From: Janthinobacterium lividum
GTDB taxonomy: Bacteria; Armatimonadota; Armatimonadia; Armatimonadales; Capsulimonadaceae
Direction of reading: 5' to 3'
Assembly: GCA_050954545.1 (NCBI GenBank)
Contig: JBPBQB010000288.1
Location: 1,291-65,290, forward strand
DNA: 64,000 nt
Of this stretch, positions 1,039 through 50,019 are shown piece after piece. The translations under genes were made by a program, and so were the position numbers. Below the pieces are notes generated by a model. That model did no database searches. It was not told the DNA's origin and saw only the letters and a program-made list of their open reading frames with translations. Position 1 is the stretch's first letter, and the number at the start of each line of letters is the position of its first letter.

Positions 1039-1189
1039 CATCACTGGAACCGGCACTGGAAGTGCCGGTCTACTCTTGAATGGAAGTCACTACGCGACTA
1101 AAGACTAGCCTTTATTGGCAGGTTCCGCAGTGTCGGAGACACTTTGATGCAACAGTAGGCCGGCACTTCCAGTGCCGGTTCCAGTGATG
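1039..1189. repeat. perfect 30-bp inverted repeat (1039-1068 / 1160-1189) around a 91-bp spacer
   Basis: CATCACTGGAACCGGCACTGGAAGTGCCGG and its exact reverse complement. Each arm also contains its own small hairpin, CCGGCACT..AGTGCCGG. Confidence 0.9.
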
Positions 1190-7284: not shown

Positions 7285-7455
7285 CCCCCACCCCCGCCGC
7301 TTCGCGTCGACCCCTGCCCCCGCAAGCGGGAGAGGGGTGAAGATTTGGAAGTGAAGTTAGGAGGGAAGCTTTTGCTTCTCTCTTGTCTTAATCCTGTTCC
7401 TACCCCTCTCCCGCTTGCGGGGGCAGGGGTCGACGCGAAGCGGCGGGGGTGGGGG
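7285..7455. repeat. perfect 54-bp inverted repeat (7285-7338 / 7402-7455), 63-bp spacer
   Basis: CCCCCACCCCCGCCGCTTCGCGTCGACCCCTGCCCCCGCAAGCGGGAGAGGGGT and its exact reverse complement, between convergent genes. Confidence 0.95.
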
Positions 7456-10063: not shown

Positions 10064-11458
10064 TTATTTTAGCATATCTGATGACAATGGGAGAGGCACC
10101 GCAGGATAGCGAAATACAGAATCTTGGGGCGTCACTTTCTGACCCGGCTTACCGCCATCAAAAGTGCCCGTCGGTCCAGCGCTGTAAACGACAAAACCAT
10201 TCACACCTTCCCGGCGGTAGCCCAGCGGCTTGCCTGTGAATGGGTCGACAAATGACTGCGGCAGCGTTTCGGGATAGATGCCATTCTGCGCTTTTATGGA
10301 CAGAAGTGCTGCTGCTACTTGTGTTACTATTTGCCGCGTCTGTGCACGAGTATCGTTCTCATCGTTGTTTCCGATGGCGGGCATTAAGATCAGGGCAACA
10401 AGATGAGTCGGATTAGAGGGGTTGTCCTCTTCTCTTTCCAGTTGCTTCTCCGCAGCGGCAAAGGCTGTTCTGCGGACTAACGGCGGCATATCACAGGCCA
10501 CGACTAACGGGCGCATATGGGCGAGATAGTCGGCCTGCCAGGCATCGATTAAGCCATGGAGATTTTGCGGTTCAGCGCGAGGCCCATTGATCTTGCTGTC
10601 TGGATCTTGCGGAAGACCACCTGCGGTAAGTGCCGCAGCCATTCCTCGACTTTCTGCCTGATGCATCTTTATAATACATGCACACCCGAAGCCTGATTCT
10701 CCCGCCATCGCCCGGCGCAATGACAGCTTTGGCTGCCGCAATTCCACAGTTCTCTGCATGTCGGCGCCAGCATCGCGATTGGGTCCAGCAATCGCGAGAA
10801 TACTCTGCATTCCAGACAGTGTAATATGGTCGCAGGCGATGCCAAGCAGGTGAGCGAGAAGAACGGGATCGGAAGCGGCATGTTCGGCCACACGGAAACC
10901 ACGGGTTTGATTGGTAATGGCTTTCTGAAAATGACCATCACGGGCCAGCAAATAGCTTTCTGTTTTAAGAAGCCAGACCGCCTTTCGCATTGGCCGGTAT
11001 TCTGGGAATTGGATGTCGGCACCCTGCGACCAATCGCGGGCAAAGACGCACTTAGGGCGGTCCGCCGCTTGGTGCACCAAATCCATAACATCTGTGCGCT
11101 GAGCAAGCGTCTCCCGCACCAACGCGATCTGAGCGGGTGTATAGGTATGAAACGCATCCATTCCATCCGCGTATCTTGGAAGGTGAAGCGGCTTTTGTTT
11201 CAGCAGCACTGTCAGCTTTGTGTAAAGCGGAGCTGCATTCTGACTGGCTGGCGGTAGGGGAGCCTGCATTTGGTCTGGCCCCAGCAGCATACCTAACTGA
11301 CGGTCAGCCGCCTCCTCCCGTGCCAGATTCGCTGGTCCATCTGCCGCAAATTGCTGCATTCGGGTAACAACCCGTTGTGTATGCACCATCACTATGATGG
11401 CTGTAATGGAAAGTCCCAAAATACAGGCTGCCGCGAATGCAATTAAGAAGCGTTTCAT
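10064..11458 (-). CDS. hypothetical envelope protein, paralogue B, pseudopilin(GspG)-like C-terminus
   Basis: N-terminal TM helix. C-terminus DPFTGKPLGYRREGVNGFVVYSAGPTGTFDGGKPG. Collinear similarity to the 11501-13000 product. Confidence 0.6.
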   Translation of the reverse strand: MKRFLIAFAAACILGLSITAIIVMVHTQRVVTRMQQFAADGPANLAREEAADRQLGMLLGPDQMQAPLPPASQNAAPLYTKLTVLLKQKPLHLPRYADGMDAFHTYTPAQIALVRETLAQRTDVMDLVHQAADRPKCVFARDWSQGADIQFPEYRPMRKAVWLLKTESYLLARDGHFQKAITNQTRGFRVAEHAASDPVLLAHLLGIACDHITLSGMQSILAIAGPNRDAGADMQRTVELRQPKLSLRRAMAGESGFGCACIIKMHQAESRGMAAALTAGGLPQDPDSKINGPRAEPQNLHGLIDAWQADYLAHMRPLVVACDMPPLVRRTAFAAAEKQLEREEDNPSNPTHLVALILMPAIGNNDENDTRAQTRQIVTQVAAALLSIKAQNGIYPETLPQSFVDPFTGKPLGYRREGVNGFVVYSAGPTGTFDGGKPGQKVTPQDSVFRYPAVPLPLSSDMLK

Positions 11459-13007: not shown

Positions 13008-13169
13008 TAAGAACCCCTCCCGCTCGTCCCTCGCTCCCTCCCCTGTTAGGGAAGGGCTATACAGAATGAGAAAATGCTGCTGATGAAAACAGCACTCTCT
13101 TTGTCCTGCACTTTCCGAGGCCCTTCCCTAACAGGGGAGGGAGCAAGGGACGAGCGGGAGGGGTTCTTA
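13008..13169. repeat. 50-bp inverted repeat (13008-13057 / 13120-13169, 1 mismatch), 62-bp spacer
   Basis: TAAGAACCCCTCCCGCTCGTCCCTCGCTCCCTCCCCTGTTAGGGAAGGGC and its reverse complement. Confidence 0.95.
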
Positions 13170-14784: not shown

Positions 14785-16767
14785 TTGAGAACTTTTCACT
14801 TGACCAAACAAAAATCACTTCCCGTCAATCTTCTGTTTATCGCGCTTATCGCCCTCGGCCTGATTGGCAGCCTCATCTCGGCCTCCCATCGCTGGAAGGC
14901 GGAAGCGCGGAACCGGCGTGTGGAGCTGGTCATCGATTACGGCGATGCACAGGCGCTCGCGAATACGACCAGCCGGCAGATCGATGACGTACTCACGCAG
15001 CTTAAAGTCGCAGGCATCACAACTGTTGCCGTCACGGAAGATTCGCTGGGGACACTGAACACAAACGGGGTCGTCACCTATGCCCGTAATGGCAATTCGA
15101 CACAGCTTACGTTCGCGCCGGGCTTTCCCGGACAGCGGGCGCGGGTCGTACAGATGCTGGCCCATAAAGCGCCGGGGCTGACTGTGACACCGGTTGGCTT
15201 GAACGGCCTGCTGGTCGGAGCGCCCTGGCCGCAGTTCAACTCCATTCCCATCGGACTGGACAGCGATACGGTAAACACGATCAAGCGAAATAAGCTGCTT
15301 GTCGCCCCGCGCTTGGTCAACTTTACCGGGGTCACGGTTCAGAATATCCCCTGGGAGCTGGCCCAGACCAAGCGGCAGTGCATGGAGGGGGCCGGAATCG
15401 GGCCGGTCATCTTTGCCGGGACATCCGTGCTGGGCAACCGGGCGCTGATCAAAACCACGGCAGATGCGCTTGTCGCCAATCATTTGACTTATGGCAGTGT
15501 AGAGCTTGGCAAGATGTTCGGCGATGATGATCTGTCGCGCATGGCGGACACGCAGACTGTCCGGGTGCATAGCATCGGAACCGACGAAATGGGCACGATG
15601 GAAGAGCCGACTGCTGTGGAGCGGTTTGTCCGGGCCGCAAAAGAGCGCAACATCCGAGTTTGCTATGTGCGCCTCTTTATTTCGGGCCTGCCTCACGATC
15701 CGGACGTGCTTCAGGCCAATACGGCATTCATTGAAAAGATCGTCAGGGGAATGCGGGAAGCGCATCTAACTGTAGGCGAAGGTCCGGCTCACCCGTATGC
15801 CGATGATCCCAAGCCGGGCCTGCCGCTGCGCCTTCTGATGGCGCTGGGCGTCGCGGGTGGAACCCTTCTTCTTCTTCGCGTCTTCACCGGCATTTCAGGC
15901 CGGGCGCTGGTGATCGCGTCGGCGGTCATTCTGGTGCTGGCGCTGGGGGCTGCCGCTCCAGGGACGACTCCGAAAGGACGTGAGCTGCTGGCTCTGGTGT
16001 CTGCCTGCGTCTTCCCGACACTGGGCCTCTGCGCGATCTCCTTGCCGCGCCCCGTCTCGAACGGCTCCAATGCGGAAGTCCTGCGCTGGGCCTTTATCGC
16101 CTATCTCAAAATGACCCTGGTGACAGTCATCGGCATTCTGCTTGTCATTGGCCTGCTGTCCGGGCGGCTCTTCCTGCTGAAAGTCGATGCGTTCTTAGGG
16201 GTCAAGATGGTGCTGGTGACTCCCGTCGCACTGGTCGCGGTGTACTACGGTCTCGGGCTGGGTACACTCAGCGCCCGTGCCGGCTGGGCGGAGCGCCGGG
16301 ATACGGTGCTGGGCAATCTCCGGGTTCTGGCCGCACACCCGCTGCTCTCCGGGCAGGTAGTGATCGGGATTGTCGCGCTGGTTGCCCTGGCTTTCTTTGT
16401 GGCCCGAAGCGGCAATGATCCCGGCGTAGGGGTCTCGGCGACGGAGCTAAAGACACGCGCCCTGCTGGACCACTTCTTGTTTGTCCGTCCGCGATTTAAA
16501 GAGTTCCTGCTGGGTCACCCTGCCCTGCTTCTCGGCCTGGCCGCGTTTGCTTCTAAGCGGTTCTCTCACTGGGTGCTGCCGCTGCTGGTAGTCGGTGCGA
16601 TTGGGCAGTCGTCGCTGATGGATACGTTCTGTCATCTGCATACGCCGCTCGTGATCTCGGCCCTGCATGGACTCATCGGCTGGGTGCTCGGCGCGATCTT
16701 CGGCGTTCTGATCTGGACTGCGGTCGGGATCGTCGAAGCCCGCTTCCCTGCGAAAGCCGCCGAGTGA
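14785..16767 (+). CDS. large polytopic membrane protein co-transcribed with csaB (tentatively DUF5693-like)
   Basis: 660 aa: N-terminal TM, about 330-aa soluble domain, then many TM helices. 4-nt overlap with csaB. Confidence 0.6.
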   Translation: MRTFHLTKQKSLPVNLLFIALIALGLIGSLISASHRWKAEARNRRVELVIDYGDAQALANTTSRQIDDVLTQLKVAGITTVAVTEDSLGTLNTNGVVTYARNGNSTQLTFAPGFPGQRARVVQMLAHKAPGLTVTPVGLNGLLVGAPWPQFNSIPIGLDSDTVNTIKRNKLLVAPRLVNFTGVTVQNIPWELAQTKRQCMEGAGIGPVIFAGTSVLGNRALIKTTADALVANHLTYGSVELGKMFGDDDLSRMADTQTVRVHSIGTDEMGTMEEPTAVERFVRAAKERNIRVCYVRLFISGLPHDPDVLQANTAFIEKIVRGMREAHLTVGEGPAHPYADDPKPGLPLRLLMALGVAGGTLLLLRVFTGISGRALVIASAVILVLALGAAAPGTTPKGRELLALVSACVFPTLGLCAISLPRPVSNGSNAEVLRWAFIAYLKMTLVTVIGILLVIGLLSGRLFLLKVDAFLGVKMVLVTPVALVAVYYGLGLGTLSARAGWAERRDTVLGNLRVLAAHPLLSGQVVIGIVALVALAFFVARSGNDPGVGVSATELKTRALLDHFLFVRPRFKEFLLGHPALLLGLAAFASKRFSHWVLPLLVVGAIGQSSLMDTFCHLHTPLVISALHGLIGWVLGAIFGVLIWTAVGIVEARFPAKAAE

Positions 16768-17861
16768 AACGGCTGCTGCTTTCGGGCTATTACGGCTACG
16801 GCAACGCCGGGGATGAGGCTGTGCTTGCGGGTCTGCTGACCGGCTTCCGGGCTTCTGCCTCTGCCGCTGACCTGGAGCTGACTGTGCTTTCCGGTAATCC
16901 GTCTGAGACGCGCACGGCGCATGGTGTCGATGCCGTAGATCGGTACCGGCCCTCCGCGCTTCTGCCGGCGATTGCCCACTGCGACTTGTTTCTCTCCGGC
17001 GGCGGCAGCTTATTGCAGGATGTGACTTCGGCGCACGGCATCTTTTACTATCTCGGCGTCGTCCGGCTGGCTCAGATGCTTGGCAAAAAGACAATGTTCA
17101 TCGCACAGGGCATCGGCCCTCTGAAGCTGGCCCGATCTCGTAAGCTGGTAGCATCTGTCGCCAACAAGCTGAGTGCCATCACTGTCCGCGATCCCGATTC
17201 GGCTCAACTGCTCCGCGAAATCGGTGTGATACGTCCGCCCATCGAAGTCACCGCCGACCCTGCCCTACTCTTATCCCCTTCTCCTATCCCCTCTAACTCC
17301 CCCAGAATTGGGGGCCGGGGGGCCTCCTCTTTTGGCGTTGCCCTGCGGCCCTGGCATGGGCAGGAGGAGATCGGCGCTCAAGTCACTGACGCTTGCTTCA
17401 GCAGCCTCGGCACTCAGAAGCCGCTGCTGATTCCTATGCAGCCTGCAAGCGATACGCCGGTCGCGGAACAATTCAGGCAGAAATGGGCTCTGCTATCAGG
17501 GCAGGCGAACGCTGCCACGCTTTGCACAGCGACCGACGGACTCGGGCCGCTCTTGTCAATCATCGCCGGGTGTGATATGATGGTAGGGATGCGGCTTCAT
17601 GCCTTGATCTTAGCCGCCGCCGCCGGTGTCCCCTCGGTGGCATTGTCCTACGACCCGAAAGTGACGGCTTTCATGCAGAGCAGCGGCCAGGGCGATGCCG
17701 TTTACGATCTGAACGCACCGTTGGACACGCTGACCAGTCTGCTGGCCCGTGTCTGGGCGGAGCGTTTGGCCCGAGCCGCCGCGCTCGACGCTGCACTGCC
17801 GGGCCTGCGGGCACAGGCGACCCGTAACATAGAAATCGCGCTGAAACAGCTTTCGCTTTAA
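16764..17861 (+). CDS. csaB: polysaccharide pyruvyl transferase CsaB
   Basis: MKRLLLSGYYGYGNAGDEAVLAGLL is the characteristic CsaB N-terminus. Confidence 0.8.
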   Translation: MKRLLLSGYYGYGNAGDEAVLAGLLTGFRASASAADLELTVLSGNPSETRTAHGVDAVDRYRPSALLPAIAHCDLFLSGGGSLLQDVTSAHGIFYYLGVVRLAQMLGKKTMFIAQGIGPLKLARSRKLVASVANKLSAITVRDPDSAQLLREIGVIRPPIEVTADPALLLSPSPIPSNSPRIGGRGASSFGVALRPWHGQEEIGAQVTDACFSSLGTQKPLLIPMQPASDTPVAEQFRQKWALLSGQANAATLCTATDGLGPLLSIIAGCDMMVGMRLHALILAAAAGVPSVALSYDPKVTAFMQSSGQGDAVYDLNAPLDTLTSLLARVWAERLARAAALDAALPGLRAQATRNIEIALKQLSL

Positions 17862-19532: not shown

Positions 19533-19615
19533 AAAGAACCTCACCCTGCCGCTGCGCGTCGACCCTCTCCTTGCTAAGGAGAGGGTCGGAATGGAGTTCC
19601 GGGGTGAGGTTCTTT
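19533..19615 (+). terminator. nested palindromic element / probable terminator after the lipoprotein gene
   Basis: Outer stem AAAGAACCTCACCC / GGGGTGAGGTTCTTT. Inner hairpin GACCCTCTCC-7-GGAGAGGGTC. T-rich tail. Confidence 0.6.
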
Positions 19616-30977: not shown

Positions 30978-31064
30978 GCCCCCTAGCCCCCAATAATGGG
31001 GGAACTGGAAAAGATCACGCGGAATCGTCCCTTCCTGCTCCCCCATTATTGGGGGCTGGGGGGC
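30978..31064. repeat. 27-bp inverted repeat (30978-31004 / 31038-31064, 2 mismatches) between two co-oriented genes
   Basis: GCCCCCTAGCCCCCAATAATGGGGGAA versus the reverse complement of CTCCCCCATTATTGGGGGCTGGGGGGC. Confidence 0.9.
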
Positions 31065-37663: not shown

Positions 37664-37741
37664 ATGGAAAAAGCTTGCGAACCTAAAGATGTGGAAGCGC
37701 GGCTGTGCCCAGAGTGGAAAGATGGCTCTTTAAATGGATAA
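37664..37741 (+). pseudogene. truncated duplicate of the valS 5' end (19 valS codons, then stop)
   Basis: MEKACEPKDVEARLCPEWK versus the true valS MEKAYEPKDVEARLYPEWE. Part of direct repeat 37651-37721 = 39350-39420. Confidence 0.85.
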
Positions 37742-39188
37742 TGCGGAATTATCGAGCCTGCTTACGACTTTACGCGCCGAACCTCATGAATCGGAGTGGA
37801 TAGAGTTCAAGGAGAACAACGAAGCCCCAGACATGATCGGGCAACGACTGTCTGCGCTTGCCAATGCTGCGGCTCTGCTTGGGAAAGAGCGGGCTTACTT
37901 CGTCTGGGGTATCGAAGATGGCTCCCATCGCATTGTTGGCACGACGTTTTCTCCGCGTCGGGCAAAAGTAGGCAATGAAGAACTCGAATCCTGGCTGTCA
38001 CATCATCTGAGTCCCTGTCCTGACTTTCGGATCCATGTCTTACCGGTCCAGGAAACTTCAGTCGTTTTGTTTGAAATTACTCCAGCACAGCACACTCCTG
38101 TTCGCTGGAAGGAAACTGCGTATGTCCGCATCGGAAGTTATACGAAAAAGCTTCAAGATTACCCTGAAAAGGAACGGTCCCTCTGGCTCACACTATCTCG
38201 GCATCCCTTCGAGAGTCGGGTCGCGCTTTCTGGCTGCTCGGAAGATGATATTTTGTCCCTTTTGGATTATGATGCCTACTTTCGACTGACAAAGCAAAGT
38301 CTTCCAGCCACTAGAATCGGTATTTTAGAGCGTTTAGCCAGCGAAAAGATGATTGTTCGCAAAGAAGAACGTTTTGACGTTCTCAATCTTGGAGGGTTGC
38401 TTTTTGCCCGCAGGTTATCCGATTTCAGTACGCTGAGTCGTAGGGCAACACGAGTTATTGATTACTCGGGAAATGCACGAATTAGTGGAGGTCGAGAGCA
38501 TATTTCGCTTTCTGGATACGCTGCTGGTTTCGAGTCTTTAATTGCTTACATAAAGACCCGCTTGCCGAACAATGAGCACATTGCTCAAGCCCTCCGAGTC
38601 GAAACCGAAATTTATCCTGAGATCGCGCTTCGTGAACTCGTGGCCAATGCAATTATCCATCAGGACTTGGACGCTCAAGGCGACAGTCCCTTTGTCGAGA
38701 TGTTTGAAGATCGCCTTGAAATCACCAATCCTGGAAGGCCGCTAATCAGTCCACTGCGTTTTATTGATGAGCCGCCACAGTCGCGCAACGAAACACTTGC
38801 AGCATTTATGCGGCGTGTTAACATCTGTGAAGAACGTGGCAGTGGTATTGACAAAGTCATCCATGCCGTCGAAATCTGGCAGTTACCAGCACCGGAATTC
38901 ACGGAGACAGAGCGGCACACACGGATTTACCTTCATGCGCCGCGAACTTTCCGGGAAATGAGCACTAAGGATCGAACTCGTGCTTGTTATCAGCATGTTT
39001 GTTTGATGTATGTCTTCAATCAATCCGCGACGAATTCAAGCCTTCGTAAACGATTTTCTTTTCAAGATGAGGATTACAAGATTGTCTCTAAAATTATCAA
39101 TGACACAACGAAAGAGGGCATGATTAAACCTTACGATTCTGAGAACCGTTCGCGGCGTCATGCACGGTATATTCCTTTCTGGGCGTAG
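37734..39188 (+). CDS. AlbA_2 (Schlafen-like) DNA-binding domain protein with HATPase_c_4-like C-terminal domain
   Basis: N-terminus ESEWIEFKENNEAPDMIGQRLSALANA. C-half RELVANAIIHQDL...LEITNPGRPL. 484 aa, typical length for this architecture. Confidence 0.7.
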   Translation: MDNAELSSLLTTLRAEPHESEWIEFKENNEAPDMIGQRLSALANAAALLGKERAYFVWGIEDGSHRIVGTTFSPRRAKVGNEELESWLSHHLSPCPDFRIHVLPVQETSVVLFEITPAQHTPVRWKETAYVRIGSYTKKLQDYPEKERSLWLTLSRHPFESRVALSGCSEDDILSLLDYDAYFRLTKQSLPATRIGILERLASEKMIVRKEERFDVLNLGGLLFARRLSDFSTLSRRATRVIDYSGNARISGGREHISLSGYAAGFESLIAYIKTRLPNNEHIAQALRVETEIYPEIALRELVANAIIHQDLDAQGDSPFVEMFEDRLEITNPGRPLISPLRFIDEPPQSRNETLAAFMRRVNICEERGSGIDKVIHAVEIWQLPAPEFTETERHTRIYLHAPRTFREMSTKDRTRACYQHVCLMYVFNQSATNSSLRKRFSFQDEDYKIVSKIINDTTKEGMIKPYDSENRSRRHARYIPFWA

Positions 39189-39341: not shown

Positions 39342-39362
39342 TTGTTTGCAAAGGAAACTAAT

Positions 39363-42206
39363 ATGGAAAAAGCTTACGAACCCAAAGACGTGGAAGCGCG
39401 GCTGTACCCGGAGTGGGAAGCGGCAGGGCTGTTTCATGCGGAGCCGACACCGGGGAAGCCGAAGTTCAGTATCAGCATTCCCCCGCCTAATGTCACGGGC
39501 AGCCTGCATATGGGCCATGCCCTCAACCATGCGGTGCAGGATACGCTTGGGCGCTGGCACAAGATGCAGGGCGATACGGTGCTGATCCTGCCCGGCATGG
39601 ATCATGCGGGGATCGCGACACAGACGGTTGTTTCCCGGCAGATCGAGAAGGAAGGGCTGACGCGCTTTGATCTGGGCCGCGAGAAGTTTGTCGAGCGTGT
39701 ATGGGCCTGGAAGGAAGAATACGGTTCACGCATTCTCGTTCAGCTCAAGCGGCTGGGCTGCGGGTACGACTGGTCACGCCTCCGCTTCACGATGGACCCG
39801 GAATATGCCGAGGCCGTGGCGGAAGCGTTTGTCCGCTTCTTTGATGCCGGGCTGATCTACCGGGGCAAACGAATGGTGAACTGGTCGGTGGGCCTGCAAA
39901 CGGTTATCTCGGATATTGAAGTGGAAAATATCGAGACCGACGGCTCACTCTGGCACATTAATTACCCGTTCGCTGATGGTTCCGGCACTGTTACGGTGGC
40001 GACGACGCGCCCGGAAACACTGCTCGGCGATACGGCTGTGGCAGTCAACCCGGCCGATCCCCGCTATGCCGGGCTGATCGGCAAGATGCTGCTCCTTCCG
40101 CTGACCAATCGCGAGATCCCGCTGATCGCCGACGATTACGCGAGTATGGAGTTCGGGACGGGCGCAGTCAAGATCACCCCGGCCCATGACCCGAACGACT
40201 ATGAAGTAGGCCTGCGTCACAATCTGCCTCAGATCGCCGTGATCGGCTTCGACGGCAAAATGACCGAAGACGCCGGGGTTCGTTACGCAGGGCAGGACCG
40301 CTTTGAGGCGCGGGACCTGATTGTCGGTGATTTGGAAGCCGCCGGTGTACTCGAAAAGATCGAGCCATACCGTCATTCCATCCCGCATTGTGACCGGAGC
40401 AAGACCGTGATTGAGCCGCTGCTGTCCGAGCAGTGGTTCATGAAGATGGCCGGCACGGAACTGATCCAGAAGGCCACCGACATCGTGAATGACGGTGCGA
40501 TCCAGTTCGCCCCGAACCGCTACGCCAAGACCTATGTCGATTGGATGGACGGCATTCGCGACTGGGCCTTGTCTCGTCAGCTCTGGTGGGGCCACCGCAT
40601 TCCCATCTACTACAAGCCCGATGGGACTTATGTCGCCGCGAGAAATCTCGCCGAAGCGGTGGACCGTGCAGGCACTGACCAGTTGACGCAGGACGAAGAC
40701 GTACTCGATACGTGGTTTTCGTCTGCTCTGTGGCCGTTCGCGACTCTGGGCTGGCCGCACCAGACTCCTGATTTGGACTATTTCTATCCGACCGATTTCC
40801 TGACTACCGCCGGCGAAATCCTGCGCCTCTGGGTCGCGCGTATGGTGATGACCGGCTTAGAGTTCACCGGTAAGAAGCCTTTCTCCGACGTCTACATCCA
40901 TGCGACGGTGCTTGACAAAAAAGGCCGCCGGATGTCTAAAAGCCTCGGCAACGGCGTTGACCCTGTCGAGATGATCGATAAGTACGGGGCCGACGCCCTG
41001 CGCTTCTCCCTGCTGCGTCTGGCTTCCAAAGGCCAGGACATCAAGTTCAGCGAAGAGCGGGTACCTGAATCGCGTAACTTTGCCAACAAGCTCTGGAACG
41101 CCGCCCGCTTTGTGCTGATGAATATGGAACCCACCCCTGCTCGTTCCTCGCTTTCCCCTCCCGAAACGGGAAGGGTAGGAGATGGAGAAAAGATCACGGG
41201 CATGGACACTGACGTTCCTCTTCCAGACTTTACCGAGTTTTTCGCTGAACATACTAATGCCAGCATCGCTAAAACTCTTAGTCCTCCCGTTTCGGGAGGA
41301 CCCCTGCGAAGCAAGGAGGTGGGTTCCCTCCCGGAACGCTGGATACTCTCACGTTTGCAGCGGACGGTACAAACTGTGAACAGTGCGCTGGGAACTTACG
41401 ACATGGACGATGCCTGCGGGGCGCTCTATGAGTTTGTCTGGGGCGAGTATTGTGACTGGTTTGTCGAGCTGTGTAAGCCTTCGCTGCAAGGTGAAGACGA
41501 CTCGGCTAAAGACTCGGCTCGGGCAGCGCTTTATACAGTGCTCGAAACGACACTACGCCTGCTGCACCCGATCATGCCATTTGTGACGGAAGAAATCTGG
41601 CAAAATCTGCCGGGTAAGACCGAAAGCATTAGCCTGGCCCCTTACCCTATTTTAGATGAGGCTTTGATCGATACTGAGGCTGAGGCCGGGATCGGACTGC
41701 TGATCGAGAGCATCACGGCTTTGCGCGGCTTGCGGGCGGAATTCACGCCGGGCGGACAGGAAAACGAAGCCGCACGGGCCGCAATGCTCAACCGAAAGTT
41801 GACAGTCATTGCCGTTGCTGAAAGCGCAGCAGCGACCGCAACATTGCGCGGACAGTTGCCCGCCCTTGTTGCGCTTGCGCGTCTCGGTGAAGTGTCTGTT
41901 GCGGACGCTGTGCCGACAAACGGCAAATATGTTCCCGCCGGTGTTTCCGGCGCGGCGTTCTACGTCCCTGCCGGTGAGCTGCTGGAAGGTCTCGACCCAG
42001 CAAAAGAGTCCGCACGGCTGGAAGCAGAGATCGTTAAACTAGACAAAGAGCTTGCCGGAGTGCAGGGGCGATTGAACAATCCAAGCTTTGTCGAGCGAGC
42101 GTTGCCGGAAGTCGTCGAAAAAGCACGGGCTGACGCCGCTGATTTGGTTCAGCGTCAGACAAAACTGGAAATGCGGCGCGGACTGCTGACAAGCACCCAG
42201 GATTGA
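39363..42206 (+). CDS. valS: valine--tRNA ligase
   Basis: HIGH-type SLHMGHALN, KMSKS-type RMSKSLGN, C-terminal coiled coil. ATG 39363. Confidence 0.95.
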   Translation: MEKAYEPKDVEARLYPEWEAAGLFHAEPTPGKPKFSISIPPPNVTGSLHMGHALNHAVQDTLGRWHKMQGDTVLILPGMDHAGIATQTVVSRQIEKEGLTRFDLGREKFVERVWAWKEEYGSRILVQLKRLGCGYDWSRLRFTMDPEYAEAVAEAFVRFFDAGLIYRGKRMVNWSVGLQTVISDIEVENIETDGSLWHINYPFADGSGTVTVATTRPETLLGDTAVAVNPADPRYAGLIGKMLLLPLTNREIPLIADDYASMEFGTGAVKITPAHDPNDYEVGLRHNLPQIAVIGFDGKMTEDAGVRYAGQDRFEARDLIVGDLEAAGVLEKIEPYRHSIPHCDRSKTVIEPLLSEQWFMKMAGTELIQKATDIVNDGAIQFAPNRYAKTYVDWMDGIRDWALSRQLWWGHRIPIYYKPDGTYVAARNLAEAVDRAGTDQLTQDEDVLDTWFSSALWPFATLGWPHQTPDLDYFYPTDFLTTAGEILRLWVARMVMTGLEFTGKKPFSDVYIHATVLDKKGRRMSKSLGNGVDPVEMIDKYGADALRFSLLRLASKGQDIKFSEERVPESRNFANKLWNAARFVLMNMEPTPARSSLSPPETGRVGDGEKITGMDTDVPLPDFTEFFAEHTNASIAKTLSPPVSGGPLRSKEVGSLPERWILSRLQRTVQTVNSALGTYDMDDACGALYEFVWGEYCDWFVELCKPSLQGEDDSAKDSARAALYTVLETTLRLLHPIMPFVTEEIWQNLPGKTESISLAPYPILDEALIDTEAEAGIGLLIESITALRGLRAEFTPGGQENEAARAAMLNRKLTVIAVAESAAATATLRGQLPALVALARLGEVSVADAVPTNGKYVPAGVSGAAFYVPAGELLEGLDPAKESARLEAEIVKLDKELAGVQGRLNNPSFVERALPEVVEKARADAADLVQRQTKLEMRRGLLTSTQD
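41127..41326. repeat. degenerate palindromic element lying in frame inside valS
   Basis: Arms 41127-41175 and 41283-41326 share the GAACCCACC terminus and a CTCCCGAAACGGGA(A)GG core in inverted orientation. The left arm aligns with the arm of the 13008 element. Confidence 0.6.
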
Positions 42207-42378
42207 AATCCTGGGCTGAGGAGCCTATGGCTGGTTGTCCTGCGGACAAAAGAACATAAGAAAATGGATTATCTCGTAGTCTTCTGTCCGCAGGACAGCC
42301 GGCGCGAAGCGCCCTTCAGCCATGCACTTCAGTGCGTGGAAAACGTGATTCACGCAAGTTAGGGTACAATGGCGGACA

Positions 42379-44028
42379 ATGACGAAGTTCTCTGCTAGTC
42401 CCCTCCCCTTGCTCTGCGTTTTGCTGCTTGCCCTGGCATTGCGGGTCTGGGGGCTGACCTGGGGACTGCCCTCGGCGACCCACTATTTTTCGTATCATCC
42501 GGATGAAAGTGTCGTGCTGGGATATGCCTCGCAGACGATGAATGTCTTTGCGGGGCATCTGCTTCCGCATTTTTACCGGTACGGCTCTTTGCAGCTTTAT
42601 CTGGTCTGTTTTGCCAATACTCTGGCCGCTCTGTTCGGGGGCGTGGAGATCGTGCCGAAAGATTATGCTGTCTGGTACCCTGAGTGGGCCAAAATGTATT
42701 TGATCGGACGCTGCCTGACAGTCGGCATGGGTGTCGGCACCGTCTGGGCGACTTATGCACTGGGACTGCGTTTGTGGGGGAAGCGGGCAGGTCTGCTAGC
42801 AGCACTGATACTCGCGATCACTCCGCTGCACGCTCAGCATTCGCATTTTCTGACGGTCGATGTTCCAGCGACGTTTTGGGTCATGCTGTCACTGCTTTGG
42901 ACAGTACGCCTTGCCACTGGTGACTCAAAACCACTCAAAGCCGCTCTCTGGGCAGGAGTCTTTGCCGGGTTGGCCGCAGCGACCAAGTACAACATGGCCC
43001 TGGTAATCCTGCCGCTGATTGTGGCTAGTTTCATAAACTCCTCACCTACCCGCTTCGGGAGGGGGGGCGCTTGCGCCGGGGTGGGTTTTTTAGCCTTCGT
43101 TTTGGCATTCTTCGCCGCCTGTCCCGGTGCGCTTCTCGAAACGAATATTTTCCTGAGCGACTTCCACGCGGAAGCCGTTCATGTCCAGAATGTCAATGAT
43201 CCGACATTCCGAGACACAGGCAACGGATTCATCTACCATATCACGCACAATCTGGATGCAGGGCTGGGTCTGCCGCTTCTGCTGCTCGTGCTGGTCTCGA
43301 TTGGTTATGCGCTTTACCGGCGAGAACGTGGGGATGGATTGCTGGCGGCATTCGCCCTGCCCTATTACATCTTGATTGGTTTAGCAGCCGTGCGCTATGC
43401 CCGTTATGCGATCCCGCTTCTGCCTATTTTATCACTGTGGGCTGGCAGAATGGTTGCGGTTGGGACACGAGAAAGCGCGAAAATCGCACCAGGGTTTGTT
43501 AAGATAGTCAGTGCATGTGTGCTTTTGGCGACTTTTGCGCTGACGTTGTTGCTTATCCAGCCGATGGCACAAATTGATCCGCGCGATCAGGCAATACTAT
43601 ATCTTAGACCACGTGCTACTGGAGCCAATTTCGCAGGAGCCCCTTTTTTCTCCGAGGGGCCTATCGGCTTTCCTGTACAGCCCTGGTTTGGTACAGTTCC
43701 AGTTAGTCCCTATTTCACTCTGCCGCGCCCCGGTGCATGGCAGGCTGTCACATCGCCGAAGACGCTCAAAAACATTGTGTATGACGGCCAAGATTGGGAT
43801 GCCAAAGACTTGAAAGCTAAAAAGCCACCGTATGTGGTGCTGAGCGAATATGACTACGATGATGCACTACGGCTCAAAGACCCGGCGGCGGAGGTTTATC
43901 TCAAGTTGCTGACGCATAATTATGACCGGCTTTGGATGAATGAAAATACACCGCAATTTAGCTCACGCGGCTTGCCACATGATATGACTTATACTGATCC
44001 AATTATTTACATCTATGGGCGGAATTAA
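42379..44028 (+). CDS. GT39/ArnT-like lipid-carrier-dependent glycosyltransferase
   Basis: Polytopic N-half with SYHPDESVVL loop motif, 549 aa, soluble C-terminal domain. Confidence 0.65.
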   Translation: MTKFSASPLPLLCVLLLALALRVWGLTWGLPSATHYFSYHPDESVVLGYASQTMNVFAGHLLPHFYRYGSLQLYLVCFANTLAALFGGVEIVPKDYAVWYPEWAKMYLIGRCLTVGMGVGTVWATYALGLRLWGKRAGLLAALILAITPLHAQHSHFLTVDVPATFWVMLSLLWTVRLATGDSKPLKAALWAGVFAGLAAATKYNMALVILPLIVASFINSSPTRFGRGGACAGVGFLAFVLAFFAACPGALLETNIFLSDFHAEAVHVQNVNDPTFRDTGNGFIYHITHNLDAGLGLPLLLLVLVSIGYALYRRERGDGLLAAFALPYYILIGLAAVRYARYAIPLLPILSLWAGRMVAVGTRESAKIAPGFVKIVSACVLLATFALTLLLIQPMAQIDPRDQAILYLRPRATGANFAGAPFFSEGPIGFPVQPWFGTVPVSPYFTLPRPGAWQAVTSPKTLKNIVYDGQDWDAKDLKAKKPPYVVLSEYDYDDALRLKDPAAEVYLKLLTHNYDRLWMNENTPQFSSRGLPHDMTYTDPIIYIYGRN

Positions 44029-46815: not shown

Positions 46816-46929
46816 AATTACCAAAAATAGTTTTTGGTTTGGGCGAAATCGCCCTAAAGAAATCGTTCACTTTGACCTATAATAGTTTTGTTACCGGCCA
46901 GAGTGGCGCGGGACAAATAAATGACGACG

Positions 46930-47060
46930 ACACTAAAGGCAAACCCGCCGGCATTGCCGGGTGATCGAAAGACGGGGACGCAAAGCTAAAGGGTCTAAGG
47001 CCGCTCACGCTGCTATGATCGCCAAGCCGCCGCACCGCCTGCGTAAACGGGTGAAGACCC
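46930..47060 (+). promoter_or_regulatory. c-di-GMP-I (GEMM-I) riboswitch candidate upstream of flgM
   Basis: AAAGGCAAACCC 46935-46946, GAAA tetraloop 46967-46970, GGGGACGCAAAGC 46974-46986. Tetraloop-receptor-like CTAAGG ... TATG at 46995-47016. Confidence 0.6.
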
Positions 47061-49371: not shown

Positions 49372-49377
49372 AGAAAC

Positions 49378-49997
49378 ACGACTCAAGAGTCGTATTATGC
49401 GCCGGCGCAACTTCCGACTCTTGAGTCGTGTATTTATTATCTAAATGGGGCAAATCATGGATGAAATTGATAGAGAACGATTTTCTTTAAGCTATGTGTT
49501 TATAGATGACTGCTGGATCTGGTTTCGCAGCCTTGTCAAAGATGGCTACGGATCAATTCGTATTGCGGGCAGAACACGTCGCGCTCATCGGGTGTCTTAC
49601 GAACTTGCTTATGGTGTAGTATTGTCTCCTGACCAATTCTTACATCATATATGTAAGAATAAGGCTTGTGTGAATCCACTGCATCTTGAAATTACCACCC
49701 AAGCGCCCTATGTCGACAGTGCAATTTACGGCAACAAAGAAAAGACGCATTGTCCTTACGGGCATGAATACACAGAAGCGAATACCTGCTGGCGTAAAAA
49801 CAAGAAGCAAAGAGAATGTATGACATGCAAATTGGCTAGAATGAAACGGCGTCAGGTACGTATACAGCAGGCGGCGGCAGAAAAGCTGGAAGCATTAGCA
49901 CTGAAATGTCGCCTGACGACACCTCAATAAACATATACACAGTATACGATTCAAGAGTCAGAAGTTGCGCCGGCGCATAATACGACTCTTGAGTCGT
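49378..49997. mobile_element. HNH nuclease gene flanked by inverted copies of a 52-bp hairpin
   Basis: 49378-49429 and 49946-49997 are reverse complements (2 mismatches). Each is itself a 15-bp-stem hairpin. Interior AT-rich. Confidence 0.6.
49445..49930 (+). CDS. HNH endonuclease
   Basis: CWIW...DGYGSIRIAGRTRRAHRVSYEL...HHICKNKACVNPLHLE plus C-terminal Cys/His cluster THCPYGHEY...CMTC. Confidence 0.8.
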   Translation: MGQIMDEIDRERFSLSYVFIDDCWIWFRSLVKDGYGSIRIAGRTRRAHRVSYELAYGVVLSPDQFLHHICKNKACVNPLHLEITTQAPYVDSAIYGNKEKTHCPYGHEYTEANTCWRKNKKQRECMTCKLARMKRRQVRIQQAAAEKLEALALKCRLTTPQ

Positions 49998-50019
49998 ATA
50001 TGAAACGAGTGGGATTGTT

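Follow-up and report, generated by a model that had tools for sequence, protein, structure and literature searches.

What brings a palindrome into the reading frame of an essential enzyme, and what becomes of it there? This question is raised by valS, the gene for valine-tRNA ligase (ValRS), in a 64,000-nt stretch of DNA from an uncultured Armatimonadota bacterium (contig JBPBQB010000288.1). This whole stretch is referred to below as the window, and all coordinates given without a locus number are positions in it. A preliminary description had taken a segment of the gene for a palindromic repeat inserted in frame. The analysis was extended to relatives, fetched as Armatimonadota metagenome-assembled genomes labelled Armatimonadales or Capsulimonadaceae (L-numbers designate the fetched loci). 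The segment is very probably a copy of a non-autonomous palindromic repeat of about 145 bp, abundant in this Armatimonadota clade; this 200-bp copy replaced a short loop at the surface of the enzyme.

The valS open reading frame (ORF) starts with a TTG at 39342, and the N-termini of homologues agree with the ATG at 39363. The element at 41127-41326 lies in frame within it and the frame is open throughout, as had been described. The count of 70 residues between the NKLWNAARFVLMN helix and ERWILSRL also proved exact. The motif-to-motif distance was 91 residues in the window ValRS versus 37–42 in 68 of 120 homologues, and the enzyme of Thermus thermophilus (1GAX) has 57 residues fewer at the insert position, which maps onto its short loop at residues ~592–604. 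The element encodes residues 589–655 (67 residues), and these together with M588 (68 in all) stand where relatives have a native 19-residue loop, LPDDFD.RDWSHVLHAEGT. This native loop was found in many relatives with 85–90% ValRS identity and in one more distant clade, and the comparison with orthologues thus spoke for the proposed reading. Since 68 residues stand in for the native 19, the element took the place of the loop and was not merely added to it.

An AlphaFold2 model of the protein, obtained with a 50-sequence alignment, had a mean predicted local distance difference test score (pLDDT) of 84 and matched 1GAX (E 6.7e-66, template modelling score 0.83). No secondary structure was modelled for residues 588–655, the pLDDT being below 50 over 595–647, and the flanking helices 564–587 and 656–677 were confident. 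The structural check called for in the preliminary description therefore gave an unstructured loop between two confident helices. The insert falls into the anticodon-binding domain, in the loop that joins its first and second helices, and its peptide is predicted to form an unstructured, Pro/Gly/Ser/Glu-rich loop of 67 residues. An intein or intron seems improbable, as the insert contains no domain and no structure and its frame is conserved. The frame was kept in 15 of 15 valS loci with a complete loop, irrespective of insert length, which argues for translation of the segment and not for its removal. The rest of ValRS outside the insert is highly conserved. Junction peptides predicted for the insert include FVLMNMEPTPAR and EVGSLPER. 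When the insert peptide was compared with protein databases, a word-index search gave no candidates and a full HMMER scan gave only two long repetitive proteins. The peptide is presumably neutral for the function of ValRS.

The inverted termini GAACCCACC / GGTGGGTTC and the inverted cores noticed earlier were both present. A repeat finder listed the inner cores CCTCCCGAAACGGGAAGG / CCTCCCGTTTCGGGAGG (41157-41181 and 41275-41299) as arms of 25 nt that have 84% complementarity and are separated by 93 nt. In the proposed layout of the element, the termini would enclose two arms, each with a CCCTCCCG-AAA-CGGGAGGG hairpin. As RNA, the 212-nt stretch folded into one long arm-to-arm structure of -86 kcal/mol, compared with -62.9 ± 4.7 kcal/mol for dinucleotide shuffles (z -4.9, 0 of 200 as stable). 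The right arm lacks the GTRAC-TTG-TYAC sub-hairpin found in L131, L014 and L080, and the extra spacer DNA had no match anywhere in the fetched DNA. The window copy is an old and modified one, with ~60 extra spacer nucleotides and one right-arm sub-hairpin lost. The degeneracy of its arms had been attributed to coding constraint. This explanation did not hold: the intergenic copy in L131 shows the same asymmetric arms, and the imperfect match is therefore largely a property of the element subtype. Other intragenic copies, in L008 valS and in the PMT_2 gene of L081, have arms that are 97–100% complementary.

Membership of a dispersed repeat family was supported first by the left arm, whose alignment with the 13008 element, as previously reported, extended over 67 nt with 72% identity (32.6 bits; no shuffle of 200 reached that score). 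The within-window matches at this score were the element at 13011 and the site 43029-43087. The right arm gave no significant match within the window (87 of 200 shuffles). Outside it, this arm shared 94% identity with L081, 90–92% with L014 and L080, and, over 37 nt, 92% with the intergenic L131. A spacer motif, GAGAAAAGATCACGGGC, had been considered common to the valS insert and the 30978 element; it did no better than shuffles (23 of 200), so the spacer-based link to that element does not hold. Beyond the window, the left arm was 89% identical over 55 nt to the intergenic L012:60-113 (E 7e-13). A metagenome scan with an arm core pattern matched at least 120 contigs, and more than 20 copies at 85–91% identity over the full 55-nt left arm were found in relatives and metagenome contigs among the matches listed. 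A degenerate arm pattern matched Armatimonadota loci alone; 62 unrelated loci fetched along with them gave no match.

The most complete match was L131:5781-5926 in a metagenome contig, which is intergenic, with ruvC on one side and a gene for an oxidoreductase on the other. Its alignment with the valS inserts covers the full length, through the left arm, the spacer and the unlike right arm: 119 of 140 positions were identical with the L080 insert (z 20) and 120 of 131 aligned positions with the window insert (z 13.5). The valS insert is therefore one complete element. The similarity between repeat and valS DNA was highly significant, both for L012 and for L131, so that this test too spoke for the proposed reading.

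Additionally, the valS loop behaved as a hot spot. Across 100 relatives, ValRS had no other major indel site, and the loop was expanded in 45 of 120 homologues. As judged from the alignments, at least four repeat families recurrently occupy this same loop in related species (Table 1), and the inserts of at least four families end ...GGGTTC directly before CTN CCN GAA CGC TGG. In L011, positions 10270-10660 hold a tandem 18-nt unit (GAACCCGGCACGGCAGAG)n, read as (EPGTAE)n and interrupted by an assembly gap of Ns; this array derives from a terminus of the family-B palindrome. An element downstream of valS in L002 is of the same type as the palindrome at 19533-19615. The L012 site (60-193) orthologous to window 30978 holds a family-A element instead of a family-C one.

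Copies read in frame were not limited to valS. The single arm in the PMT_2 glycosyltransferase gene was 88% identical over 50 nt to the left arm of L014 valS (E 1e-11) and was absent in the more distant orthologues L077, L007 and L013. At the same site, a full palindrome with arms up to 100% complementary was present in L081 and L015, and an added left arm of another subtype in L001. These full palindromes and the extra arm make PMT_2 a second recurrent in-frame site beside valS. The csaB-like protein of the window has 8 residues more than its L009 orthologue, located at a family-C hairpin. In L163, a family-A copy in an NTP_transferase gene is read as EEPTPARSSPPLPKREGEE, in a frame identical to that of the valS copy, and the Pfam domain spans the insert. 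About one fifth of the family-A copies in metagenome contigs lay inside long ORFs, among the matches listed.

Table 1. Location of the valS element, of related repeat copies in the window, and of the repeat types found in valS loops of relatives
Feature	Position or loci	Strand	Basis or counterpart
valS (valine-tRNA ligase), 947 aa	39363..42206	+	Pfam tRNA-synt_1, Anticodon_1, Val_tRNA-synt_C in homologues
Palindromic repeat element, family A, in frame in valS	41127..41326	+	arm matches, fold, end-to-end alignment with L131
Left arm: terminus GAACCCACC, module GCTCGTTCCTCGC, hairpin CCCTCCCGAAACGGGAAGGG, then TAGGAG	41127..41181	+	85–91% matches over 55 nt
Spacer, 93 nt, ~60 nt longer than in compact copies	41182..41274	+	alignment to compact copies
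Right arm: hairpin CCTCCCGTTTCGGGAGG, module ACCCCTGCGAAGCAAGGA, terminus GGTGGGTTC	41275..41326	+	90–94% to orthologous inserts
Single family-A arm in PMT_2 glycosyltransferase gene (42379-44028), encodes NSSPTRFGRGGACAGVGF	43038..43087	-	Pfam PMT_2; arm match
Family-C hairpin (CTCCCCCAGAATTGGGGGCCGGGGGGC) in frame in csaB-like ORF (16764-17861)	17298..17323	-	family-C match
Intergenic family-A palindrome, 50-nt arms 98% complementary, 62-nt spacer	13008..13169		RNA fold z -15.4
Intergenic palindrome, 54-nt arms 100% complementary, related family-A variant	7285..7455		repeat finder and arm matches
Intergenic cloverleaf-like palindrome AAAGAACCTCACCC...GGGGTGAGGTTCTTT	19533..19615		same type as L010 valS loop insert
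Intergenic family-B palindrome (GGAACCGGCACTGGAAGTGCCGG...)	1039..1189		family of L011 valS loop; 82–86% over 50 nt, E 4e-8 to 7e-10
Intergenic family-C palindrome (CCCCCAATAATGGGGG core)	30978..31064		family of L006 and L012 valS loops; 87–94% over 32–39 nt, E ~1e-6
Family A in valS loop	window, L080, L081, L014, L202, L203		intergenic counterparts 13008-13169, L012, L131
Family A, left arm only, in valS loop	L002, P0004, P0007		
Family B in valS loop, also (EPGTAE)n array	L011 (closest relative)		intergenic counterpart 1039-1189
Family C in valS loop	L006, L012, L004		intergenic counterpart 30978-31064
GAACCTCACCC...CCCTCTCC type in valS loop	L010		intergenic counterparts L002, 19533-19615
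Other types in valS loop	L005, L007, L008, L013		

Taken together, these results are consistent with the following course of events. A copy of the element would have landed in the DNA for this loop of the anticodon-binding domain and displaced the 19 native residues. Transcription and in-frame translation would then have turned it into a loop of 67 residues without fixed structure. Its persistence may be due to the position of the loop between two intact helices, where almost any length and sequence would be tolerated. Hence, of the in-frame palindrome insertion originally proposed, the repeat membership and the open frame stood; the idea of an addition did not, since the native loop was replaced.

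Several observations weigh against this account. The presence of the insert peptide in mature ValRS is inferred from the kept frames, an indirect basis. No autonomous element or transposase of the type associated with repetitive extragenic palindromic sequences (REP-associated tyrosine transposase, RAYT) was found in any fetched DNA, and because no such partner was found there, mobility was deduced from the distribution of the copies only. No target-site duplication was readable at valS, the native loop being gone. Family-A alleles were not monophyletic in the ValRS tree, which simple vertical descent from one insertion leaves unexplained. Between species, the arms were 88–96% identical versus 74–86% for flanking valS DNA and ~60% for third codon positions. 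Finally, compensatory double changes affected four arm-arm pairs versus 1.5 ± 0.9 in shuffles (10 of 500), which hints at a constraint that a purely neutral passenger would not need.

The partner enzyme was also sought through the termini. Family-A terminus pairs 0.4–4 kb apart in the fetched DNA were only the valS and PMT_2 copies themselves, and no transposase enclosed by a pair of family-A termini was detected in that DNA. Likewise, no consistent flanking sequence was found at the intergenic copies. Within the window, just one small ORF is flanked by repeats; it encodes an HNH_3 endonuclease of 161 aa (49445-49930) and lies between parB and cinA. It is bracketed by two related palindromes at 49376-49431 and 49943-50000, whose core GACTCAAGAGTCGTAT is unrelated to family A. 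Relatives with only a 47- or 105-aa ORF at this site make it look like a small mobile cassette, and a repeat of the same type lies at L004 20092-20333.

The alternative that survived best concerns the hot spot, which could reflect targeting, by preferential integration at this DNA site or into or beside a resident palindrome, and not only tolerance. Elements would then be gained or swapped there again and again in different lineages, for instance by a transposase that recognises hairpins or by template switching at them. We regard this as possible, though the less likely account of the hot spot. The identical position of at least four families and their constant end before CTN CCN GAA CGC TGG speak for it. 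So does the presence of a full family-A element in lineages whose nearest ValRS relatives keep the native loop (P0005 to P0023, 94%; P0006 to P0018, 93%), without a raised flank-identity tract indicating recent allele transfer. In ValRS, family-A alleles had a mean identity of 0.890 among themselves versus 0.887 to native alleles. Recent transfer of alleles between lineages was itself considered and rejected, the sliding-window identity showing no raised tract beyond that of native alleles. Furthermore, orthologous intergenic sites hold different families (30978 versus L012:60-193, and the valS-PMT_2 spacer), and in PMT_2 an older right arm was joined by left arms of two subtypes. Nevertheless, selection alone could give the same picture, the loop being perhaps the sole permissive place in an essential gene and intergenic space being scarce. 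The star-like phylogeny of the clade leaves the non-monophyly weakly resolved, no conserved target motif lay beside the intergenic copies, and no candidate enzyme was found in the fetched DNA. The data fit targeting as well as tolerance combined with high insertion pressure.

A bolder form of the idea, which we consider unlikely, is that the palindromes of this clade home to resident hairpins or to a specific DNA context at the ValRS loop and replace one another there, and that arm complementarity may be actively maintained despite translation of the element. In that case, either conversion between the arms or selection on a structure in RNA or DNA may keep the complementarity. If true, this would amount to site-directed, self-correcting, protein-coding selfish DNA, and not to random insertion filtered by selection.

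It is less probable still that the insert has been kept for a nucleic-acid function (for example as an mRNA or DNA structure acting on valS translation, mRNA stability or replication), or that the peptide was recruited as an appendage of ValRS. The evidence pointing this way comes from the arms: although they encode a disordered loop, their conservation (0.91–0.92) equals that of the best-conserved valS coding segments and exceeds the gene mean of 0.82. Across the six orthologous inserts and L131, 95% of arm-arm positions pair. Two of the four compensatory changes replace an amino acid (K by E and S by P) with pairing kept. In L081 and L203, GAAAC/GTTTC became GGAAC/GTTCC, by which two amino acids are altered. 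In L080, GAACCC/GGGTTC became GAACCT/AGGTTC, again a compensatory pair change. The fold z-score given above also agrees with such a function. In other lineages, however, the place is taken by unrelated sequences or a short native loop, so that no particular sequence is required. The covariation stems from few events among related sequences, for which the method has a false-positive rate of 5–25% in alignments of this kind, and independent self-complementary insertions or arm-to-arm conversion would give the same pattern. Given a small sample of related sequences, the evidence for nucleotide-level constraint on the arms is suggestive only.

Nor did the search of known RNA families favour a nucleic-acid function. 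At the gathering threshold, the only Rfam family found in the window was the c-di-GMP-I riboswitch elsewhere in it, and a permissive Rfam search gave no match for the valS insert and only sub-threshold generic hairpin matches for the 13008 element. The riboswitch aptamer lies at 46928-47034 on the + strand (RF01051, 50.8 bits, above the gathering score).

Two separate single-arm insertions around a diverged remnant of the native loop would be a different origin for the same segment, and a very unlikely one. The idea is prompted by the middle of the insert, LPDFTEFFAEHTNASIAKT, whose 19 residues equal the length of the native LPDDFDTRDWSHVLHAEGT, and by the similarity of LPDF to LPDDF. Lone arms do exist (43038-43087, L002 valS, P0004 and P0007), L002 retains the native RDWSHVLHAEGT after its left arm, and the middle differs between the window and L081 by synonymous-type changes. 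In contrast, L131, L080 and L014 share left arm, spacer and right arm as a unit, 85% identical end to end, and the reading with two independent arms is disfavoured. The middle as a relic of the native loop was tried separately and rejected, local alignment to 13 native variants being no better than shuffles (222 of 1,000 and 340 of 1,000).

An origin without any mobile repeat, by slippage expansion of a low-complexity loop, assembly artefact or pseudogene formation, is hardly credible: slippage does happen at the loop ((EPGTAE)n in L011, tandem arms in L013) and the window comes from a metagenome-assembled contig, but matches to dispersed copies ruled this origin out, near-identical sequence lying in the intergenic DNA of other genomes and homologous inserts in six independent assemblies, long-read chromosomes included, with the frame intact and the rest of ValRS conserved.

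Replacement of the valS loop by a complete repeat copy thus remains the preferred reading, and several further observations were made around it. Directly upstream of valS, a gene at 37734-39188 (+) encodes a Schlafen AlbA_2 / HATPase_c_4 protein; in L080 and L081, the closest relatives with synteny, other genes take its place. The short valS-PMT_2 spacer (42207-42378; also examined in L001-L015, L080 and L081) has its own hairpin or palindrome in each species. A terminator-like form, AAAGAACC...GGTTCTTT, accounts for many of these, and the palindrome of the window lies at 42230-42303. In a family-A palindrome at L009 4880-5190 the termini are tandemly multiplied, GAACCCACC being doubled on the left and CCTATCCTGCGGGGTGGGTTC tripled on the right, a pattern suggestive of slippage where the hairpin has its foot. 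About half of the metagenome pattern matches (L082-L201, among the matches listed) belonged to another large family, CCCTCCCC-GCTCGTTCCTCGC-GACCCTCCCGGAGGGAGGGTGAAG, which has a 13-nt core in common with the Armatimonadota family. Many of its copies came from a few runs of consecutively numbered Joint Genome Institute (Ga...) contigs, and one copy was in frame in an 878-aa FG-GAP/sulfatase ORF (L186).

These results extend protein-coding palindromic repeats to a free-living and poorly studied phylum. They also provide a natural series for the passage of selfish DNA into protein, in which one loop of an essential enzyme, across dozens of related genomes, is either native or filled by copies from different families, some complete and others halved, expanded or decayed. 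Such a series could reveal how much insertion an aminoacyl-tRNA synthetase tolerates, whether the elements choose their sites, and whether nucleic-acid structure stays constrained once it is translated. For annotators and phylogeneticists it carries a warning, as the length variation of this ValRS loop is repeat-derived and non-homologous between lineages.

Among known systems, the closest in behaviour are the Rickettsia palindromic elements (RPEs). RPEs are multi-copy palindromic repeats of ~100–150 bp, found between genes and in frame in unrelated housekeeping genes, with the peptide placed compatibly with the fold of the host protein and several families per genome (Ogata et al. 2000 Science 290:347; Ogata et al. 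2002 Genome Res 12:808; summarised in PMC10969869). The valS element resembles them as a many-copy palindrome present between genes and in frame in conserved genes, absent from orthologues, with its peptide at a fold-compatible loop and several families together. It differs in its hosts (free-living Armatimonadota versus obligate intracellular Alphaproteobacteria), in the GC-rich nested hairpin arms of its family, and in the use of one loop of one gene by at least four families across species, with the native loop replaced and not interrupted. To our knowledge, no such multi-family occupation of one loop with replacement has been reported for RPEs. Given the phylum and the base composition, homology to the RPE-1 to RPE-10 families is unlikely, and the likeness is one of behaviour.

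Intragenic REPs and REP doublets (REPINs/BIMEs), linked to RAYT transposases, offer a second comparison (Di Nocera et al. 2013). These occur as singles or inverted doublets, mostly downstream of genes and sometimes in ORFs, where they encode 20–80 residues; their hosts span several phyla, and in X. oryzae, E. litoralis and S. alaskensis they include genes for tRNA synthetases (PMC3733652). Single arms (43038-43087, L002, L163) and doublets with 98–100% complementary arms were likewise found here. However, the ends are GAACCC...GGGTTC in all copies, without a terminal GTAG/CGTC tag, GTAG being present only in some copies and internally. The arms are of ~50 nt with two internal hairpins, compared with 20–40 nt for REPs, and neither the 64-kb window nor the fetched flanks showed a RAYT gene. 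Since the defining tag is not at the ends, membership among REPs fails. The parallel with Rickettsia drawn in the preliminary description therefore held for behaviour, but its novelty in a different lineage is smaller than supposed, because in-frame palindromes outside Rickettsia, tRNA synthetase genes included, have already been published (PMC3733652).

Miniature inverted-repeat transposable elements, or MITEs, with in-frame fusions, namely ERIC, Nezha and Anabaena MITEs, have also been described (PMC10969869). Terminal inverted repeats, small size, many copies, the lack of own coding capacity and occasional reading within a host ORF are shared with the valS element. The difference lies in the wholly palindromic structure here, versus short terminal repeats around unique DNA in MITEs, and in the fact that no target-site duplication or parent insertion sequence was identified in the fetched DNA. 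No paper linking Armatimonadota to such repeats was found in the literature, and the core sequences appeared in no relevant paper. The valS element is thus selfish DNA of a known kind, and the unusual part is the hot spot that several repeat families share in an essential enzyme.

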